Sequence record: PZ543597.1
Length of the DNA stretch: 64,000 nt
DNA from: a phage
Direction: 5' to 3' (one strand)
Shown in pieces: positions 2,630 to 63,939 of this stretch. The number at the start of each line of letters is the position of its first letter. The first letter of the stretch is position 1. The notes beneath the pieces are model-generated. The model was not told the DNA's origin, searched no databases, and worked only from the letters and a program-made list of their open reading frames with translations. Both the position numbers and the translations under genes were made by a program.

Positions 2630-4687
2630 ATGGAACTTATTACAGAATTATTTGACGGCGCTTCGGCGCCGGTTGTTAACTTAAATCCTAAGCATAAAAT
2701 ACCTCAAATTTTTGCTATTCAAGCCGGTGAAGAAAGCGTGCTTCCTGGATTTAGATTTTGTACATACACCTCTGGTGGTGATACAAATAAAAACGTTAAG
2801 CCAGGCGATAAAATGATGCATATCGTAATGATAGGTGTTAATGAGAAACTATCATTAGTTAAACTTAGAAACTTGGGTGGAAATCCAATTGGTGTCATTA
2901 ATGCCGTTTTTGATACTGCTCTTCAAACAATGAAACAATATAAAATTGACGCATGCTTATTCCGCGTACTAAAGAGTAAAACAAATGGTGCAGCTCGTCA
3001 AATGCAAGTTATTGCCGACCGTTTAGTACGTACTAAAGGAGCAGGTCGATATGTTCTTTTAAAGGAAATCTGGGATTACGATAAAAAGTACGCATATATT
3101 ATGGTTTACCGTAAAAATGCCAATTTAGAAGACATTCCAGGTGTACCTCCTATTTCAACTGAGTTATTCACAAAAGTTGAATCAAAGGTTGGCGATGTTT
3201 ATGTAGATGTTAAAACGGGTAATGCTGTTCCTAAAGCTGTCGCTGTTGCCGCTTCTATTGCTTTAGAAAATGATAAGCGCACGGATCAAGCTGTTATTCA
3301 GAAAACTAAAATTAGTCGTCGATTAGCAGCACAAGCTCAATATTCTACTGTCGATGCTTCACTTCAGGGTGATAGCTTCGCTGCTAAGAAATATCAAGAG
3401 TTTGAATCTAAAGTTCCGGTATATAAAGCAGAAGGATCAATGAATTCTGGCGTTATTCAGATTGGTTCAAACTTCAGCAAAGGAGCTATCGGTGGTATGA
3501 GAAGTGCTTCTCGTTTTAAATCTAACGATTATGAACTAGAAAGCTTCCGAAATCATATTGCATTGGCCCATGCACGTTTACGTGATCCATCTATTAAGTT
3601 ACAGAGCGATATAACATATCAAGGTTCTCAGGAATATTTAAAGAATAAAGAATTTTTTGATTATAAAACTGATAAAATTTTAAGCGATCTTGCTGACATT
3701 AATATTTCTAATAGCTTTGATGTTATTAAGAAAATTATCAATGATTTAGTTAAAGGTTCTAAAGCCACGCCAGACGAAAAGGTAGCTATTATTCAATTTG
3801 TCATGAATGGCATTTATAAATTGATTAATGAATCTGCTGCTCAGGCATATGAATACGCAAGCACCGAAGTAACTCCAAAAGGATTAACTCAGGCTGAGTC
3901 TGATGTAATTGAAGATTATTGTGCAGATTCATATGTTGAAATGAACTCATTCCTCTTGGGTAAACCAGATTCTACCCGTGAAGAATATATGGAACGAGCT
4001 ATTAAACACATCGAGACAATGGATTCTGCCTTTGCCAAAGGTTCAGTTCTTCCTCCAGGAACTACGCTTTATCGTGGACAAGAAGTTACCTTTAAAACTT
4101 TACGTCATAATATTGAAAATAAAATGTTCTATTTCAAGAACTTCGTATCCACATCACTTAAACCAAATATCTTCGGTGAGCATGGTAAAAACTATATGGC
4201 TCTAGATGATTCCGGTGCAGTATTTTCTGGTGAAGGAGAAGGTTCAGTTGACGCAGAAGATTTGATGCATATGGGCAGTCACTCTGCTTATGCGAATGAA
4301 GATGCTGAAACTAGCGTGGGTATGGTAATTAAAGGAGCTGAGCGAATCAAAGTTATCGTTCCAGGTCATTTATCAGGATTTCCATCAGAAGCTGAAGTTA
4401 TTTTACCGCGTGGAATTTTGCTGAAGATTAATAAAGTGAGTACGTACATGATGAAAGAAACTGCTTATAACAAGTATCTAATCGAAGGCACAATCGTTCC
4501 TCCTTCTGAACAATTAGAAGAATCGGTATATGATGGCGACCATCTAATGGAAACTGGTGAAGTTCGTCCAATGGCTGGATTTAATCAATTCCTTGTAGAA
4601 GAATCAAAAGAAGAGGAAAACGAAGTTTCTCAAATCTTGGCTTCTTTGGTTAACATCAACGGAATGTCTAAAAAGTTCAAAATGTAG
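2630..4687 (+). CDS. Alt paralogue, ADP-ribosyltransferase with divergent central region
   Basis: 685-aa ORF 3 nt after alt; shares N-terminus (MELITELFD, CTYTSGGDTN, KQYKIDAC, GRYVLLKE) and C-terminal motifs (TLYRGQ, NFVSTSL, EAEVILPRG); residues ~230-400 unrelated to copy 1. Confidence 0.85.
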   Translation: MELITELFDGASAPVVNLNPKHKIPQIFAIQAGEESVLPGFRFCTYTSGGDTNKNVKPGDKMMHIVMIGVNEKLSLVKLRNLGGNPIGVINAVFDTALQTMKQYKIDACLFRVLKSKTNGAARQMQVIADRLVRTKGAGRYVLLKEIWDYDKKYAYIMVYRKNANLEDIPGVPPISTELFTKVESKVGDVYVDVKTGNAVPKAVAVAASIALENDKRTDQAVIQKTKISRRLAAQAQYSTVDASLQGDSFAAKKYQEFESKVPVYKAEGSMNSGVIQIGSNFSKGAIGGMRSASRFKSNDYELESFRNHIALAHARLRDPSIKLQSDITYQGSQEYLKNKEFFDYKTDKILSDLADINISNSFDVIKKIINDLVKGSKATPDEKVAIIQFVMNGIYKLINESAAQAYEYASTEVTPKGLTQAESDVIEDYCADSYVEMNSFLLGKPDSTREEYMERAIKHIETMDSAFAKGSVLPPGTTLYRGQEVTFKTLRHNIENKMFYFKNFVSTSLKPNIFGEHGKNYMALDDSGAVFSGEGEGSVDAEDLMHMGSHSAYANEDAETSVGMVIKGAERIKVIVPGHLSGFPSEAEVILPRGILLKINKVSTYMMKETAYNKYLIEGTIVPPSEQLEESVYDGDHLMETGEVRPMAGFNQFLVEESKEEENEVSQILASLVNINGMSKKFKM

Positions 4688-50961: not shown

Positions 50962-51686
50962 ATGAAACTAATCTTTTTAAGTGGTGTAAAGCGTAGTGGA
51001 AAAGATACTACTGCAGATTTTATCATGAATAATTATTCTGCAGTTAAATATCAACTTGCTGGTCCTATTAAAGATGCATTGGCTTATGCATGGGGTGTAT
51101 TTGCAGCAAACACTGACTATCCTTGCTTAACTCGTAGAGAGTTTGAAGGAATTGACTATGATCGTGAGACTAATTTGAATTTGACTAAATTAGAAGTAAT
51201 TATGATTATGGAACAAGCATTTTGCTATCTTAATGGTAAAAGCCCAATTAAAGGTGTGTTTGTTTTTGATGACGAAGGAAAAGAATCAGTTAATTTCGTA
51301 GCATTTAACAAAATTACTGACGTTATAAATAATATTGAAGATCAATGGTCAGTCCGTCGTCTGATGCAAGCCCTAGGTACGGATTTGATTGTTAATAACT
51401 TCGACCGCATGTACTGGGTAAAATTATTTGCTTTAGATTATCTTGATAAATTTAACTCAGGTTATGATTATTATATCGTTCCTGATACCCGTCAAGATCA
51501 TGAAATGGATGCGGCTAGGGCGATGGGTGCTACAGTAATTCATGTAGTTCGTCCTGGTCAAAAATCCAATGATACACATATTACAGAAGCTGGATTGCCA
51601 ATTCGTGATGGCGATTTAGTAATTACAAACGATGGTTCTCTTGAAGAACTTTTTTCTAAAATTAAAAATACACTAAAGGTACTATA

Positions 51687-51687: not shown

Positions 51688-52372
<685 letters not shown>

Positions 52373-52385
52373 TTTCACAAAGTTG

Positions 52386-52414
52386 TTTACATAGGGTTTT
52401 AGTTGTGATACTAT
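52386..52414 (+). promoter_or_regulatory. early-type promoter (TTTACA-N17-TACTAT) embedded in an inverted repeat
   Basis: -35 52386-52391, -10 52409-52414; ATAGGGT/ACCCTAT arms at 52391-52397 and 52416-52422. Confidence 0.6.
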
Positions 52415-52448
52415 TACCCTATCAAAACAAAACCAAATGGAAATCAAA

Positions 52449-52682
52449 ATGAAAACTTACCAAGAATTTATTGCTGAAACTGCTGATGTAAAAGTTGAGT
52501 TTATTTACACTGGCAAGAAAGATAAAATGGGTGAAATGCCTCATGGAGTTCTTCGTGATGCATTAGATAATTTCGGTCAACTCGCCGCAGAAGATTACGG
52601 TGATAAAATTGTTGTTACTGGTCCTGCTGCAGTTATTGAAAAATGGGCAGCAGAAAATAAATCAATTTTTCGTAAAAAATAA
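52449..52682 (+). CDS. internal-protein-like head protein with capsid-targeting leader (MKTYQEFIAE)
   Basis: 77 aa from the internal ATG; N-terminal MKTYQEFIAE is the T4 IP capsid-targeting/gp21-cleavage motif (L/I-x-E). Confidence 0.75.
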   Translation: MKTYQEFIAETADVKVEFIYTGKKDKMGEMPHGVLRDALDNFGQLAAEDYGDKIVVTGPAAVIEKWAAENKSIFRKK

Positions 52683-52683
52683 G

Positions 52684-52712
52684 TTTACTTTTAGATAGGG
52701 TAGTGATACTAT
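52684..52712 (+). promoter_or_regulatory. early-type promoter (TTTACT-N17-TACTAT) embedded in an inverted repeat
   Basis: -35 52684-52689, -10 52707-52712; GATAGGGTA/TACCCTATC arms at 52694-52702 and 52713-52721. Confidence 0.6.
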
Positions 52713-52740
52713 TACCCTATCTACTACTGAGGAGAATAAA

Positions 52741-52926
52741 ATGAAACGTTGTGAATTAATTCGAAATGTTGCTATTGCAATTTCTGCTTCCGCTTTTAGT
52801 TTTTCAATGTTTGTTGGATTTATATGTGGATTATTGACTACAGCAGAAAATGTGTTTTCACTTGTAGTAGCATTTTTAATTGGTTTAATTGCTATTGTTA
52901 TGGATAAAATTTCTAAAGGTGAATAA
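52741..52926 (+). CDS. small hydrophobic (two-TM) protein
   Basis: 61-aa ORF with two hydrophobic segments, SD gaggag. Confidence 0.55.
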   Translation: MKRCELIRNVAIAISASAFSFSMFVGFICGLLTTAENVFSLVVAFLIGLIAIVMDKISKGE

Positions 52927-53324
52927 TGAACGTTGAATATTATGTATATGCGGATTACGAAAATAATCCGTCTAAAGATGAAGATAATCGTTTAGGTGTA
53001 GATGCTTTCGATTCCCCTGCGGCGGCATGGCAATGGGTTGAAAGAACCGATATTCCTTACCGTTATATTGAAGTGGTTGACCACGCAGGAAACAAGTATC
53101 CTAAGGAAGCATATGTTGCTTCCGGGAAGGTAAATTTCCTTTTGTTTGCAGGTGATAATTATTATCCCCGTGGTGGGTATACCGATTTAATTGCTAAAGC
53201 ATTCTCTGAAGATGAACTCCGTGACATTATCAAAGAAAATGAAAACAAACCGATGGATTCTAATCGCTTTGATTGGTGGCAAATCGTAAATGCTAATACT
53301 CACACTATTGTTGATGAAGGCTGA
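52926..53324 (+). CDS. hypothetical protein
   Basis: 132-aa ORF, start overlaps the previous stop. Confidence 0.55.
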   Translation: MNVEYYVYADYENNPSKDEDNRLGVDAFDSPAAAWQWVERTDIPYRYIEVVDHAGNKYPKEAYVASGKVNFLLFAGDNYYPRGGYTDLIAKAFSEDELRDIIKENENKPMDSNRFDWWQIVNANTHTIVDEG

Positions 53325-53326
53325 TA

Positions 53327-53614
53327 ATGATTCTTTATGCGAAAGTATCATCCATTGAAAATGGATATAAATATGATCAAGACGCGGCTAAAGCTTTGAT
53401 TGATGATTATGGCATTTTAACATGTTTTGAAGTTGAAAAGGTTTACATTGACCGTTCATCTTCTCAAGTTAAATTAGTGAAGGAAGAACGTAAATTTAAT
53501 ACAGTAAATTTTGATTTCTTTATTGAAACAGAAAAAGGTCCTCTTGAATATGATATTTTCAAGAATCCTTTGGGTCTTGAATGCATCGTAAATATGTATT
53601 ATTATAAATGGTAA
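53327..53614 (+). CDS. hypothetical protein
   Basis: 95-aa ORF. Confidence 0.5.
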   Translation: MILYAKVSSIENGYKYDQDAAKALIDDYGILTCFEVEKVYIDRSSSQVKLVKEERKFNTVNFDFFIETEKGPLEYDIFKNPLGLECIVNMYYYKW

Positions 53615-53711
53615 ATATGCTTTAAGAATTATTTGTTATTATTAACTCATATCGCACTGATTAATACCCTCTATCATCAAGGGTTCTTGCTTAAGAGCCT
53701 TTGTTAATAAT

Positions 53712-53784
53712 TGGGAATTAGCCAAGTTGGTAAGGCACTGGATTTTGATTCCAGGATGCAAAGGTTCGAGTCCTTTATTCCCAG
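53712..53784 (+). tRNA. tRNA-Gln (anticodon UUG)
   Basis: acceptor TGGGAAT/ATTCCCA, anticodon loop tTTTGAt, T-loop GGTTCGAGTCC. Confidence 0.85.
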
Positions 53785-53785
53785 C

Positions 53786-53872
53786 GCGAGAATGGCCAAA
53801 TTGGTAAAGGCACAGCACTTAAAATGCTGCGGAATGATTTCCTTGTGGGTTCGAGTCCCACTTCTCGCACCA
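53786..53872 (+). tRNA. tRNA-Leu (anticodon UAA), type II, CCA encoded
   Basis: acceptor GCGAGAA/TTCTCGC, anticodon loop CTTAAAA, long variable arm, 3' ACCA. Confidence 0.85.
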
Positions 53873-53877
53873 AATTT

Positions 53878-53951
<74 letters not shown>

Positions 53952-53961
53952 ATTTAATTTA

Positions 53962-54035
53962 CTCCGTGTAGCTCAGTTTGGTAGAGCGTCTGCTTTGGGA
54001 GCAGAATGTCGTAGGTTCAAATCCTGCCACGGAGA
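53962..54035 (+). tRNA. tRNA-Pro (anticodon UGG)
   Basis: acceptor CTCCGTG/CACGGAG, anticodon loop TTTGGGA, T-loop GGTTCAAATCC. Confidence 0.85.
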
Positions 54036-54037
54036 CT

Positions 54038-54127
54038 GGAGGCGTGGCAGAGTGGTTTAATGCACCGGTCTTGAAAATCGGCAGTCGCTCCGGCGACTCA
54101 TAGGTTCAAATCCTATCGCCTCCGCCA
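54038..54127 (+). tRNA. tRNA-Ser (anticodon UGA), type II, CCA encoded
   Basis: acceptor GGAGGCG/CGCCTCC, anticodon loop CTTGAAA, long variable arm. Confidence 0.85.
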
Positions 54128-54132
54128 GTTTT

Positions 54133-54208
54133 GCTGATTTAGCTCAGTAGGTAGAGCAACTCACTTGTAATGAGAAGGTCGGCGGTTCGATTCCGTCAAT
54201 CAGCACCA
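54133..54208 (+). tRNA. tRNA-Thr (anticodon UGU), CCA encoded
   Basis: acceptor GCTGATT/AATCAGC, anticodon loop CTTGTAA. Confidence 0.85.
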
Positions 54209-54209
54209 A

Positions 54210-54284
54210 GGCCCTGTAGCTGGAAGGTTCAAGCAAGCGACTCATAATCGCCAGATGGTGGTTCAATTCCACCCAGGGCCACCA
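54210..54284 (+). tRNA. tRNA with CAU anticodon (Ile via lysidine, or Met), CCA encoded
   Basis: acceptor GGCCCTG/CAGGGCC, anticodon loop CTCATAA. Confidence 0.8.
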
Positions 54285-54293
54285 AATTAATTT

Positions 54294-54380
54294 GGGGAGT
54301 TATCCCGTAGAGGTAGCGGTGTGGACTGTAAATCCATTGTCATTGCGACTCGGGTGGTTCGACTCCACCACTCCCCACCA
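54294..54380 (+). tRNA. tRNA-Tyr (anticodon GUA), type II, CCA encoded
   Basis: acceptor GGGGAGT/ACTCCCC, anticodon loop CTGTAAA, long variable arm. Confidence 0.8.
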
Positions 54381-54384
54381 ATTT

Positions 54385-54459
54385 GGATGTGTAGCTCAAT
54401 GGCAGAGCGATCGCCTGTTAAGCGATTGGTTATAGGTTCGAATCCTATCACGTCCGCCA
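54385..54459 (+). tRNA. tRNA-Asn (anticodon GUU), CCA encoded
   Basis: acceptor GGATGTG/CACGTCC, anticodon loop CTGTTAA, T-loop GGTTCGAATCC. Confidence 0.8.
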
Positions 54460-54573
54460 AATTTGTGACAACTGTCACATTAATATCTACTTGACGCGAT
54501 TATAGGGGTTGAACTGATCACTCTTCTCTTAATTTCGTGTGAAGACATCTTGATTGTTGGAGTAGGTATTAAT

Positions 54574-54649
54574 GTGGCCGTAGTTCAGTTGGTAGAACTC
54601 GAGATTGTGATTCTCGTAGTCATGGGTTCGACTCCCATCGGTCACCCCA
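54574..54649 (+). tRNA. tRNA-His (anticodon GUG), CCA encoded
   Basis: acceptor GTGGCCG/CGGTCAC, anticodon stem CGAGA/TCTCG with loop TTGTGAT, discriminator C. Confidence 0.75.
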
Positions 54650-54653
54650 ATTA

Positions 54654-54729
54654 CGGGGCATAGCTCAGAAGGAAGAGCAAGGACCTTCTAAGTCCTAGGT
54701 CGTAGGTTCGATCCCTACTGCCTCGACCA
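54654..54729 (+). tRNA. tRNA-Arg (anticodon UCU), CCA encoded
   Basis: acceptor CGGGGCA/TGCCTCG, anticodon loop CTTCTAA, T-loop GGTTCGATCC. Confidence 0.85.
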
Positions 54730-55478: not shown

Positions 55479-55955
55479 AAGATGAAATCATATACTCAAT
55501 TTTTAAATGAAGCGGTGTTAAATGAAGCATCTAGCACCGAAATTCAAGCTGTTGCAAAAGCTGCCATTGCCGCGGGTAAATATTCCTATAAAGATGCTTC
55601 TGATGAATCGCGATTCCAGTTTGCACGCGACATGAAAGCGGAAGGATTTACGGGAAATGCAGTTAGTATGGCCTGGAAAAGTTTAGTTGCTACTGGCGCT
55701 GCTTTTGCAAAGGCTTCGGGTAAACCTGCTCCTAAAGCAGATCCTAAAGCGGCACAAGAAAAAAATATCGTTAAAGGAATTATCGCTAAATATGAAGCTA
55801 TCCTTAAAGAGCTTTTAGTAATCAAAACCGAAGGCCAAAAGTTAGCCCGTGCTTATAGTTTCAAAGATAATCCACATGTTCACTCTCTTGAGTATGTTGA
55901 AGACATCCAAAAAATTATTAAAGACCGCATTTGGTCTGCTAAACAAATCAAATGA
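55479..55955 (+). CDS. internal-protein-like head protein with capsid-targeting leader (MKSYTQFLNEA)
   Basis: 158 aa; start at internal ATG with SD aggaaa; leader fits the IP capsid-targeting motif; Ala/Lys-rich body. Confidence 0.75.
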   Translation, partial: KMKSYTQFLNEAVLNEASSTEIQAVAKAAIAAGKYSYKDASDESRFQFARDMKAEGFTGNAVSMAWKSLVATGAAFAKASGKPAPKADPKAAQEKNIVKGIIAKYEAILKELLVIKTEGQKLARAYSFKDNPHVHSLEYVEDIQKIIKDRIWSAKQIK

Positions 55956-56080: not shown

Positions 56081-56644
56081 ATGAAAACCTATGCCGAATT
56101 TTTAACCGAAGCAGCAAAATTACCATCTGAAGCAGATCTTACTAAAGTATTCTTCCAATTGGACCCAAAAGACCGCGGCGATTTTCTTAAGTGGAAAGCT
56201 AAAGCTATTGAAATGTACAACATCGATAATAGTTCTTTTACAATGAGTCAAGAAAATAAATTCAATAAAGCATTTTTCAAAATTTCTAAGAAATTGGCAT
56301 CTGGCGCTCAGGTTCCTAAATCTGTGTTAGCTACTCCTGAACGCGCACCTGTTAAAATTTCTAAGAATATGTTCGACACTAAAAAATACGTTAATGCTTT
56401 GAATAAAGCTCTTGATGCATTGGATGATGCAAAGAAGGCAGCCCGCGATCTTCAAGACGTGTACACCGATTTTGACCGCAAAACTAAAGGTTCTATTTCA
56501 AATAGCGAACGCAATAGTGTAAGTGTTTATTCTGATAGCCTTGATGTTCTTGGCGATGCGTATACTGAAATTAAAAATCGTATTAACACTGCATCTAAGC
56601 TAAAAGCTGCTGCAGAAGCTATAATAAGTAAACTAGGTAAATAA
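56081..56644 (+). CDS. internal-protein-like head protein with capsid-targeting leader (MKTYAEFLTEA), IPIII-sized
   Basis: 187-aa ORF; leader MKTYAEFLTEA; SD aaggat. Confidence 0.75.
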   Translation: MKTYAEFLTEAAKLPSEADLTKVFFQLDPKDRGDFLKWKAKAIEMYNIDNSSFTMSQENKFNKAFFKISKKLASGAQVPKSVLATPERAPVKISKNMFDTKKYVNALNKALDALDDAKKAARDLQDVYTDFDRKTKGSISNSERNSVSVYSDSLDVLGDAYTEIKNRINTASKLKAAAEAIISKLGK

Positions 56645-57147: not shown

Positions 57148-57148
57148 G

Positions 57149-57177
57149 TTTACACAGGCTCATGATTGAGATATTAT
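57149..57177 (+). promoter_or_regulatory. early-type promoter (TTTACA-N17-TATTAT) overlapping a 28-bp palindrome
   Basis: -35 57149-57154, -10 57172-57177; aggctcat...atgagcct inverted repeat 57156-57183. Confidence 0.6.
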
Positions 57178-57202
57178 GAGCCTATAATTTGAGGAAAATA
57201 TT

Positions 57203-60463: not shown

Positions 60464-61266
<803 letters not shown>

Positions 61267-63879: not shown

Positions 63880-63882
63880 CTG

Positions 63883-63911
63883 TTTACTTTTCCTCTTGAC
63901 TGTGGTATAAT
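63883..63911 (+). promoter_or_regulatory. early-type promoter (TTTACT-N17-TATAAT)
   Basis: -35 63883-63888, -10 63906-63911. Confidence 0.6.
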
Positions 63912-63939
63912 TTTTCTATCAGTTAAGAGGAGAATAACA

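Follow-up and report, generated by a model that had tools for sequence, protein, structure and literature searches.

Internal Proteins and Related Cassettes of T4-like Phages

Of the T4 internal proteins, Ip1, Ip2, and Ip3 are inhibitors of GmrSD type IV enzymes, one enzyme per protein (PMC12373910). The first 10 residues of IPIII are sufficient to carry proteins, foreign ones included, into the head of T4; in this leader, residues 4 and 7 act in targeting and residues 8 and 10 in processing, and the cleavage site of the prohead protease gp21 is after L/I-X-E (PMC9026906). In T4, the ipIII and ipII genes are found between e and denV, and the ipI gene between 57B and trna.4. The latter locus is polymorphic among phages. 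Its polymorphism was reportedly first described by Repoila et al. in 1994.

PeSLs are promoter-early stem-loop cassettes that mediate modular shuffling, defined by a sigma-70-like promoter together with a stable stem-loop between or over its -35 and -10 boxes, upstream of a Shine-Dalgarno sequence and a start codon; they were first described in RB49/phi1 and then in diverse T4-like phages (PMC2839356, PMC4122927). These cassettes flank small accessory ORFs, with indels between the repeated elements.

In Bas37 (Escherichia phage KarlGJung, MZ501089), the 234-nt gene bas37_0260 is located between the ip5-type gene bas37_0261 and a trna.4 homologue. According to the HIDEN-SEQ preprint (bioRxiv 10.1101/2025.11.20.689424), disruption of bas37_0260 causes a fitness defect on E. 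coli K-12 BW25113 and none on a strain without McrA, McrBC, and Mrr, and a clean deletion makes Bas37 specifically sensitive to McrBC of E. coli K-12. In the same preprint, the product is described as having just the N-terminal signal in common with IPI, IPII, and IPIII, and its packaging is deduced from this leader only. The link between ip6 and McrBC comes from knockout genetics in this one 2025 preprint, and the available part of it contains no direct McrBC binding or biochemical inhibition by Ip6.

Identification of ip6 at the 57B-trna.4 Locus

The DNA analysed here (the window) is the 64,000-nucleotide stretch of the phage record PZ543597.1. Across positions 51900-53700, the window has the same sequence (100% identity) as Yersinia phage vB_YepM_ZN18 and the Escherichia phages ECO07P4 and ECO07P5; 852 phage records match this segment. 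Like these three, the phage of the window is a Tequatrovirus. The gene order is 4, 2, 3, 1, 57A, 57B, the ip6 ORF, trna.4, trna.3, trna.2, and the tRNA cluster. The T4 order is kept, and the ip6 ORF takes the slot of T4 ipI, one of the two ip loci (57B-trna.4 and e-denV). The features of the locus are summarized in Table 1.

Table 1. Features of the ip6 locus, with positions in the window.
Feature	Position	Strand	Basis
Gene 57B, 152 aa, conserved on the left side of the ip locus	51914..52372	+	Pfam PF23474 Acb1, E = 2.7e-60; position as T4 57B
33-bp sequence GATTTAAAATAATTTCACAAAGTTGTTTACATA, one copy in the window	52361..52393	+	Two copies, bracketing the ip5 cassette, in JK08-type phages
PeSL-type element upstream of ip6, early promoter in hairpin	52383..52430	+	Promoter boxes, fold, conservation
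Weak Shine-Dalgarno TGGAAA for the 52449 start	52438..52443	+	Direct reading of the sequence
ip6 coding sequence, 77 aa + stop	52449..52682	+	PHROG 8111; identical to JK08 ip6 and Bas37_0260
Capsid-targeting sequence MKTYQEFIAE, ending in gp21 motif I-A-E; cleavage predicted after E10	52449..52478	+	10/10 identical to T4 IPII and IPIII leaders
Predicted mature Ip6*, 67 aa, 7.4 kDa, pI about 6.5	52479..52679	+	Predicted beta-alpha-beta-beta-alpha-beta fold
Second PeSL-type element, at the end of the ip6 cassette, in front of trna.4	52683..52723	+	Directly after ip6 stop; promoter boxes and hairpin
Homologue of trna.4 (membrane-like, 61 aa), conserved on the right side of the ip locus	52741..52926	+	PHROG 1692, E = 6e-35; position as T4 trna.4

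The product of 57B is clearly predicted to be the Acb1 anti-CBASS phosphodiesterase. Since ip6 adjoins it, two anti-defence genes would lie side by side. The tRNA cluster at 53712-54729 (+) contains 11 genes (Gln, Leu, Gly, Pro, Ser, Thr, Met(CAT), Tyr, Asn, His, and Arg) versus eight in T4, and the segB homing endonuclease is absent from it. The Tyr tRNA gene is labelled "tRNA-OTHER" in the RefSeq twin.

The ip6 ORF begins with ATG at 52449 and ends with TAA at 52680-52682, and 76 nt separate the 57B stop from its start. The initial annotation had placed a 77-aa protein beginning with MKTYQEFIAE here, directly downstream of 57B, and both the coordinates and the sequence are right. An alternative in-frame ATG at 52437, 12 nt upstream (MEIK-MKTY...), has no Shine-Dalgarno sequence. 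The start at 52449 is preferred because it alone is preceded by a Shine-Dalgarno sequence and because the members of the ip6 family all align starting at MKTY.

The product matches PHROG 8111, "internal virion protein", over residues 1-77 of 77 (E = 1.2e-52), and the RefSeq label of the ORF is also "internal virion protein". The protein is 100% identical to the products of the Shigella phage JK08 gene annotated as ip6 and of bas37_0260. Compared with the phage T6 gene noted as "Ip6", it is identical at 76 of 77 amino acids (V62I) and 233 of 234 nucleotides. The homology to T6 Ip6 and to VR7 Ip6 extends over the full length; the VR7 gene (genus Gaprivervirus), annotated as "ip6, similar to bacteriophage T6 Ip6", adjoins trna.4, and its product is 78% identical. 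Judged from the sequence, the ORF is the already named ip6 of T6-like phages. The name ip6 has been in use for many years, in the genome records of T6 and VR7 and in the T-even literature. The assignment to internal proteins in the initial annotation agrees with the database records, which use the name ip6 and class the product with internal head or virion proteins, and the hypervariability that it mentioned for ipI-type loci is seen at 57B-trna.4, where ipI, ip5 with ip6, ip5 with ip7, or ip6 alone is found among phages. The gene itself adds nothing new, as an identical copy is already known to be tied experimentally to McrBC evasion.

The mature part of Ip6 is present in 231 of 50,697 phage records, as a single copy per record. 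For comparison, T4 IPI* is present in 292 phage records, and Ip5-like sequences are present in 495, of which 269 are at least 90% identical. In an index of 5.8 billion proteins, 11 clusters matched Ip6. A profile of Ip6 yielded six matches among 1.84 billion representative proteins. Four of them are Ip6 proteins or fragments, and two of these four are full-length distant homologues that keep the leaders MKTYQEFINE and MKTYQEFMAE. One of the six is a member of the query alignment itself. A 419-aa repeat protein (E = 6e-4) was rejected as a false positive. In these searches, the Ip6 family is absent outside T4-like phages. Searches of Pfam, of NCBIfam, and of PDB sequences gave no match for Ip6, and PADLOC gave a single meaningless match (E = 0.03). 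The dN/dS between ip6 of the window and its VR7 copy is 0.14; thus, Ip6 is under purifying selection.

Leader and Predicted Packaging of Ip6

The first 10 residues of Ip6 are those of the IPII and IPIII propeptides, with Y4 and F7 at the targeting positions, I8 and E10 at the processing positions, and the gp21 motif I8-A9-E10 at the end of the propeptide. Since these residues are present, it is strongly inferred that Ip6 is packaged in the head and cut by gp21 after E10, leaving a 67-aa, 7.4-kDa product. Another candidate motif, V-I-E at residues 62-64, does not have L/I at P3. Ip6 would probably be ejected into the host with the DNA. A literature search for virion proteomics, N-terminal sequencing, or injection data on Ip6 found none, the name "ip6" being swamped by inositol phosphate papers.

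The initial annotation regarded the leader as the canonical capsid-targeting sequence and the protein as a small IPI-type protein. The leader is present, but it is of the IPII/IPIII type; T4 IPI starts with the 19-aa leader MKTFKEFTSTTTPVSTITE (MKTFKEF...ITE), versus 10 aa in Ip6. The propeptides of both end in x-x-E. The locus is that of ipI, and the sizes are similar (76 aa for mature T4 IPI* versus 67 aa for predicted mature Ip6), so these parts of the IPI-type description stand. The homology does not: the mature part has no detectable similarity to IPI. Alignment to T4 IPI and IPI*, which the initial annotation had proposed as a check, pairs the leader only. Ip6 as a homologue of IPI was rejected since the alignment is confined to about the first 13 residues.

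Both T4 IPI/IPI* and Ip6 have an anti-type-IV-restriction role, and their targets differ: IPI* is injected and inhibits the GmrS/GmrD type IV nuclease, and the target of Ip6 is McrBC. IPI* is basic, with a pI of 9.0, whereas Ip6 is neutral. The fold of IPI* consists of two beta-sheets flanked by terminal helices, in contrast to the predicted beta-alpha-beta-beta-alpha-beta arrangement of Ip6. Ip6 is best described as an analogue of IPI at the same locus, not as an IPI homologue. T4 IPII and IPIII, which share the 10-residue leader with Ip6, are also internal proteins that act against type IV restriction. Their mature domains, however, are unrelated to that of Ip6, their locus in T4 is e-denV, and their targets are GmrSD variants.

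Mature Ip6 has no net charge, with 11 K and R residues versus 11 D and E residues. Its predicted pI of about 6.5 is near neutral, in contrast to 9.0-9.7 for the basic T4 internal proteins. T4 Arn has been described as an acidic DNA mimic; Ip6 is neutral by contrast. Both are small, and they have McrBC as a common target (T4 annotation for Arn; bioRxiv 10.1101/2025.11.20.689424 for Ip6). Unlike Ip6, Arn has no capsid-targeting leader and is encoded elsewhere in the genome. Membership of Ip6 in the Arn family was rejected, as BLASTP gave no alignment at E <= 100.

The AlphaFold2 model of Ip6, built on a shallow alignment of nine sequences, has moderate confidence (pLDDT 79.5) and shows the beta-alpha-beta-beta-alpha-beta order. 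Foldseek with this model found nothing in PDB at E <= 0.001. In BFVD, the best structural match was VR7 Ip6. The structural matches are generic, ferredoxin-like only. The predicted fold is generic and offers no mechanistic clue.

Promoter-Hairpin Elements Flanking ip6

An early-type promoter embedded in a palindrome had been proposed in front of ip6 in the initial annotation, and it is real. The promoter is of the sigma-70 type, with a -35 box GTTTAC (52385-52390), a 17-nt spacer, and an extended -10 box TG-n-TACTAT (52406-52414). The hairpin around it is an imperfect palindrome. Its inner stem pairs ATAGGGT (52391-52397) with ACCCTAT (52416-52422), and its outer stem pairs 52383-52388 with 52425-52430. 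The predicted folding energy is -18.1 kcal/mol (z = -3.85), a stability that no shuffled sequence out of 200 reaches. The second element has the boxes GTTTAC (52683-52688) and TACTAT (52707-52712) and a 14-bp stem, 52692-52705 with 52710-52723 (-18.5 kcal/mol, z = -5.73). It would drive trna.4.

Matches to the promoter consensus in this AT-rich region are not above chance when taken alone (7 found versus 8.1 expected). The ip6 promoter is credible because T6, JK08, and Bas37 have the entire element without a single base change, and an almost identical one recurs in front of T4 trna.4. The Ip6 genes of T6, JK08, and Bas37 also resemble that of the window in their position beside trna.4 and their promoter-hairpin elements. 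Between the window and Bas37, 373 of 373 nt are identical from the end of the gene before ip6 to the trna.4 start, both intergenic elements included. The element in front of ip5 is identical to the one in front of T4 ipI. VR7 has the same element design with a different self-complementary stem. The promoter-hairpin elements are of a few types that are re-assorted among T4, T2, T6, and the phage of the window.

Both elements at the window ip6 have a sigma-70-type promoter, a stable stem-loop over the -10 box, a Shine-Dalgarno sequence, and a start codon, like the PeSL cassettes of T4-type phages. The stems of the window have no polyG/polyC tracts, which are mentioned for the RB49 PeSLs. A terminator scan of the region found no site, and there is no T-run behind the stems. 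The hairpin upstream of ip6 could attenuate read-through. GTTTAC...TAnnnT promoters with strong hairpins are also found in the window at 57148-57200 and 63882-63935 (+; -15.7 and -18.2 kcal/mol), where they precede small ORFs in the e.x/vs region. Thus, the PeSL-type elements of this phage extend beyond the ip locus.

Cassette Exchange and Loss of ip5

Between 57B and trna.4, JK08, T6, and Bas37 carry ip5 followed by ip6, T2 carries ip5 followed by ip7, and T4 carries ipI. The ip5 cassette, located between 57B and ip6 in JK08, T6, and Bas37, is absent from the window. The arrangement with ip6 alone is also found in ZN18, ECO07P4, ECO07P5, DCP2, and Bas39. The last is phage FriedrichMiescher.

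The two copies of the 33-bp sequence GATTTAAAATAATTTCACAAAGTTGTTTACATA in JK08 are a perfect direct repeat, 331 bp apart, and extend over the final codons of the upstream gene and the -35 box. When one 33-bp copy and ip5 (331 bp) are taken out of JK08, the sequence is that of the window at 51900-53700, with 0 mismatches over 1801 nt. The 33-bp repeat is likely to be the recombination site for ip5 loss. The elements bracket accessory ORFs, and the indels between close relatives map to them, as in PeSL cassettes. The loss of the ip5 cassette between the 33-bp repeats in the phage of the window fits the published PeSL cassette-shuffling model.

In T2 (MH751506), the element between ip5 and ip7 (4114-4185) is chimeric. 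Its left arm, ATAGGGT, is of the ip6 type, and its right arm, ACCTCAT, is of the ip5/ipI type, so that the stem is broken. The chimera appears to be the trace left by a crossover within the loop or the -10 region.

Function of Ip6 and Alternative Explanations

As the window gene is identical to bas37_0260, inhibition of McrBC type IV restriction is its best-supported function, in line with the action of T4 Ip1, Ip2, and Ip3 on GmrSD enzymes (PMC12373910). The anti-restriction assay suggested by the initial annotation has in effect been done on this identical gene, whose knockout is McrBC-sensitive (bioRxiv 10.1101/2025.11.20.689424). The preferred reading, with a probability of roughly 0.85, is that the ORF is ip6, an interchangeable internal-protein cassette at the 57B-trna.4 (ipI) locus, and that its product is packaged, cut by gp21, injected, and blocks McrBC. 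The 10-residue capsid-targeting sequence would attach the protein to the prohead scaffolding core. The prohead protease gp21 would then cut after I-A-E10, and mature Ip6 of 67 residues and ~7.4 kDa would stay inside the head. It would be ejected into the cell together with the phage DNA and would block the host McrBC before the incoming hydroxymethylcytosine DNA gets cut. The flanking PeSL-type elements would give the ip6 cassette its own early transcription, as well as homologous stretches through which cassettes are gained, lost, or exchanged. Packaging, cleavage, injection, and direct McrBC binding are presumed steps of this scheme. An injected anti-defence protein is here recognisable from the sequence alone, by a 10-residue leader and its locus.

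It is improbable that Ip6 inhibits McrBC only when newly made from the early promoter, without significant delivery in the capsid, and that its leader is a relic of cassette shuffling. The leader is identical at 10 of 10 residues to a sequence that has been shown to suffice for the packaging of foreign proteins (PMC9026906), and it is kept in distant Ip6 relatives at <35% identity, which argues for selection on the leader. The promoter points the other way. The sole promoter immediately upstream of ip6 is of the early type, and the nearest late-type TATAAATA on the same strand is at 51324, inside gene 1, about 1.1 kb upstream. Therefore, the supply of Ip6 at head assembly is assumed by analogy with T4 internal proteins. 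Expression of T4 internal proteins from a plasmid suffices to block their targets, so activity does not formally depend on injection (PMC12373910), and Arn, the known McrBC inhibitor of T4, is not among the T4 head-core proteins in PMC9026906. The substrate of McrBC, however, is incoming DNA, and this favours an inhibitor made beforehand, such as the packaged Ip6 of the preferred reading.

A GmrSD-family enzyme as the main natural target, as for T4 Ip1-3, with McrBC as a secondary target seen only in K-12, is also unlikely. The ip6 cassette occupies the ipI slot, and each of the three characterised T4 internal proteins is strictly specific in its action on GmrSD variants (PMC12373910), but Ip6 has no sequence similarity to IPI. 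The single available experiment assigns the phenotype to McrBC, not to McrA or Mrr (bioRxiv 10.1101/2025.11.20.689424).

A mainly structural or DNA-condensing role of Ip6 as a head filler, with an indirect McrBC phenotype, is very improbable: T4 internal proteins were historically seen as DNA-associated basic proteins and IPIII mutants have head-assembly defects (PMC9026906), but mature Ip6 has no net charge (pI 6.5), the locus is freely exchanged among phages, and the gene is dispensable on hosts without type IV restriction, the defect being McrBC-specific (bioRxiv 10.1101/2025.11.20.689424).

As an extension of McrBC inhibition by injected Ip6, it is tentatively proposed that mature Ip6 may represent a mechanistically new kind of McrBC inhibitor: a neutral, ~7-kDa, ferredoxin-like protein, delivered pre-made from the capsid, that would bind McrB or McrC directly, without the DNA mimicry attributed to Arn. 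Its spread among T6-like phages with partly unglucosylated hydroxymethylcytosine would then track this vulnerability.

Other Leader-Bearing Genes

The initial annotation counted ip6 as the third internal-protein-like gene, a number of its own making. The window has four leader-bearing ORFs, starting at 52449, 55482, 56081, and 60985. The ORF at 60985-61266 (+), 93 aa, is located between the lysozyme gene e and denV, the site of ipIII and ipII in T4. It belongs to the Ip5 family (PHROG 3499) and is 48% identical to JK08 Ip5. Thus, ip5 was lost at the ipI locus, and a paralogue is kept elsewhere in the phage of the window. The ORFs at 55482-55955 (+; 157 aa, MKSYTQFLNE) and 56081-56644 (+; 187 aa, MKTYAEFLTE) lie just past the tRNA cluster. 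Both have leaders of the capsid-targeting type and belong to PHROG 2280, "unknown function". In VR7 (NC_014792), four leader-bearing genes, ip9, ORF154c, ORF153c, and ip6, precede trna.4 at 203-1404. The product of ORF153c begins with MKTYQEFINE and is annotated merely as hypothetical.
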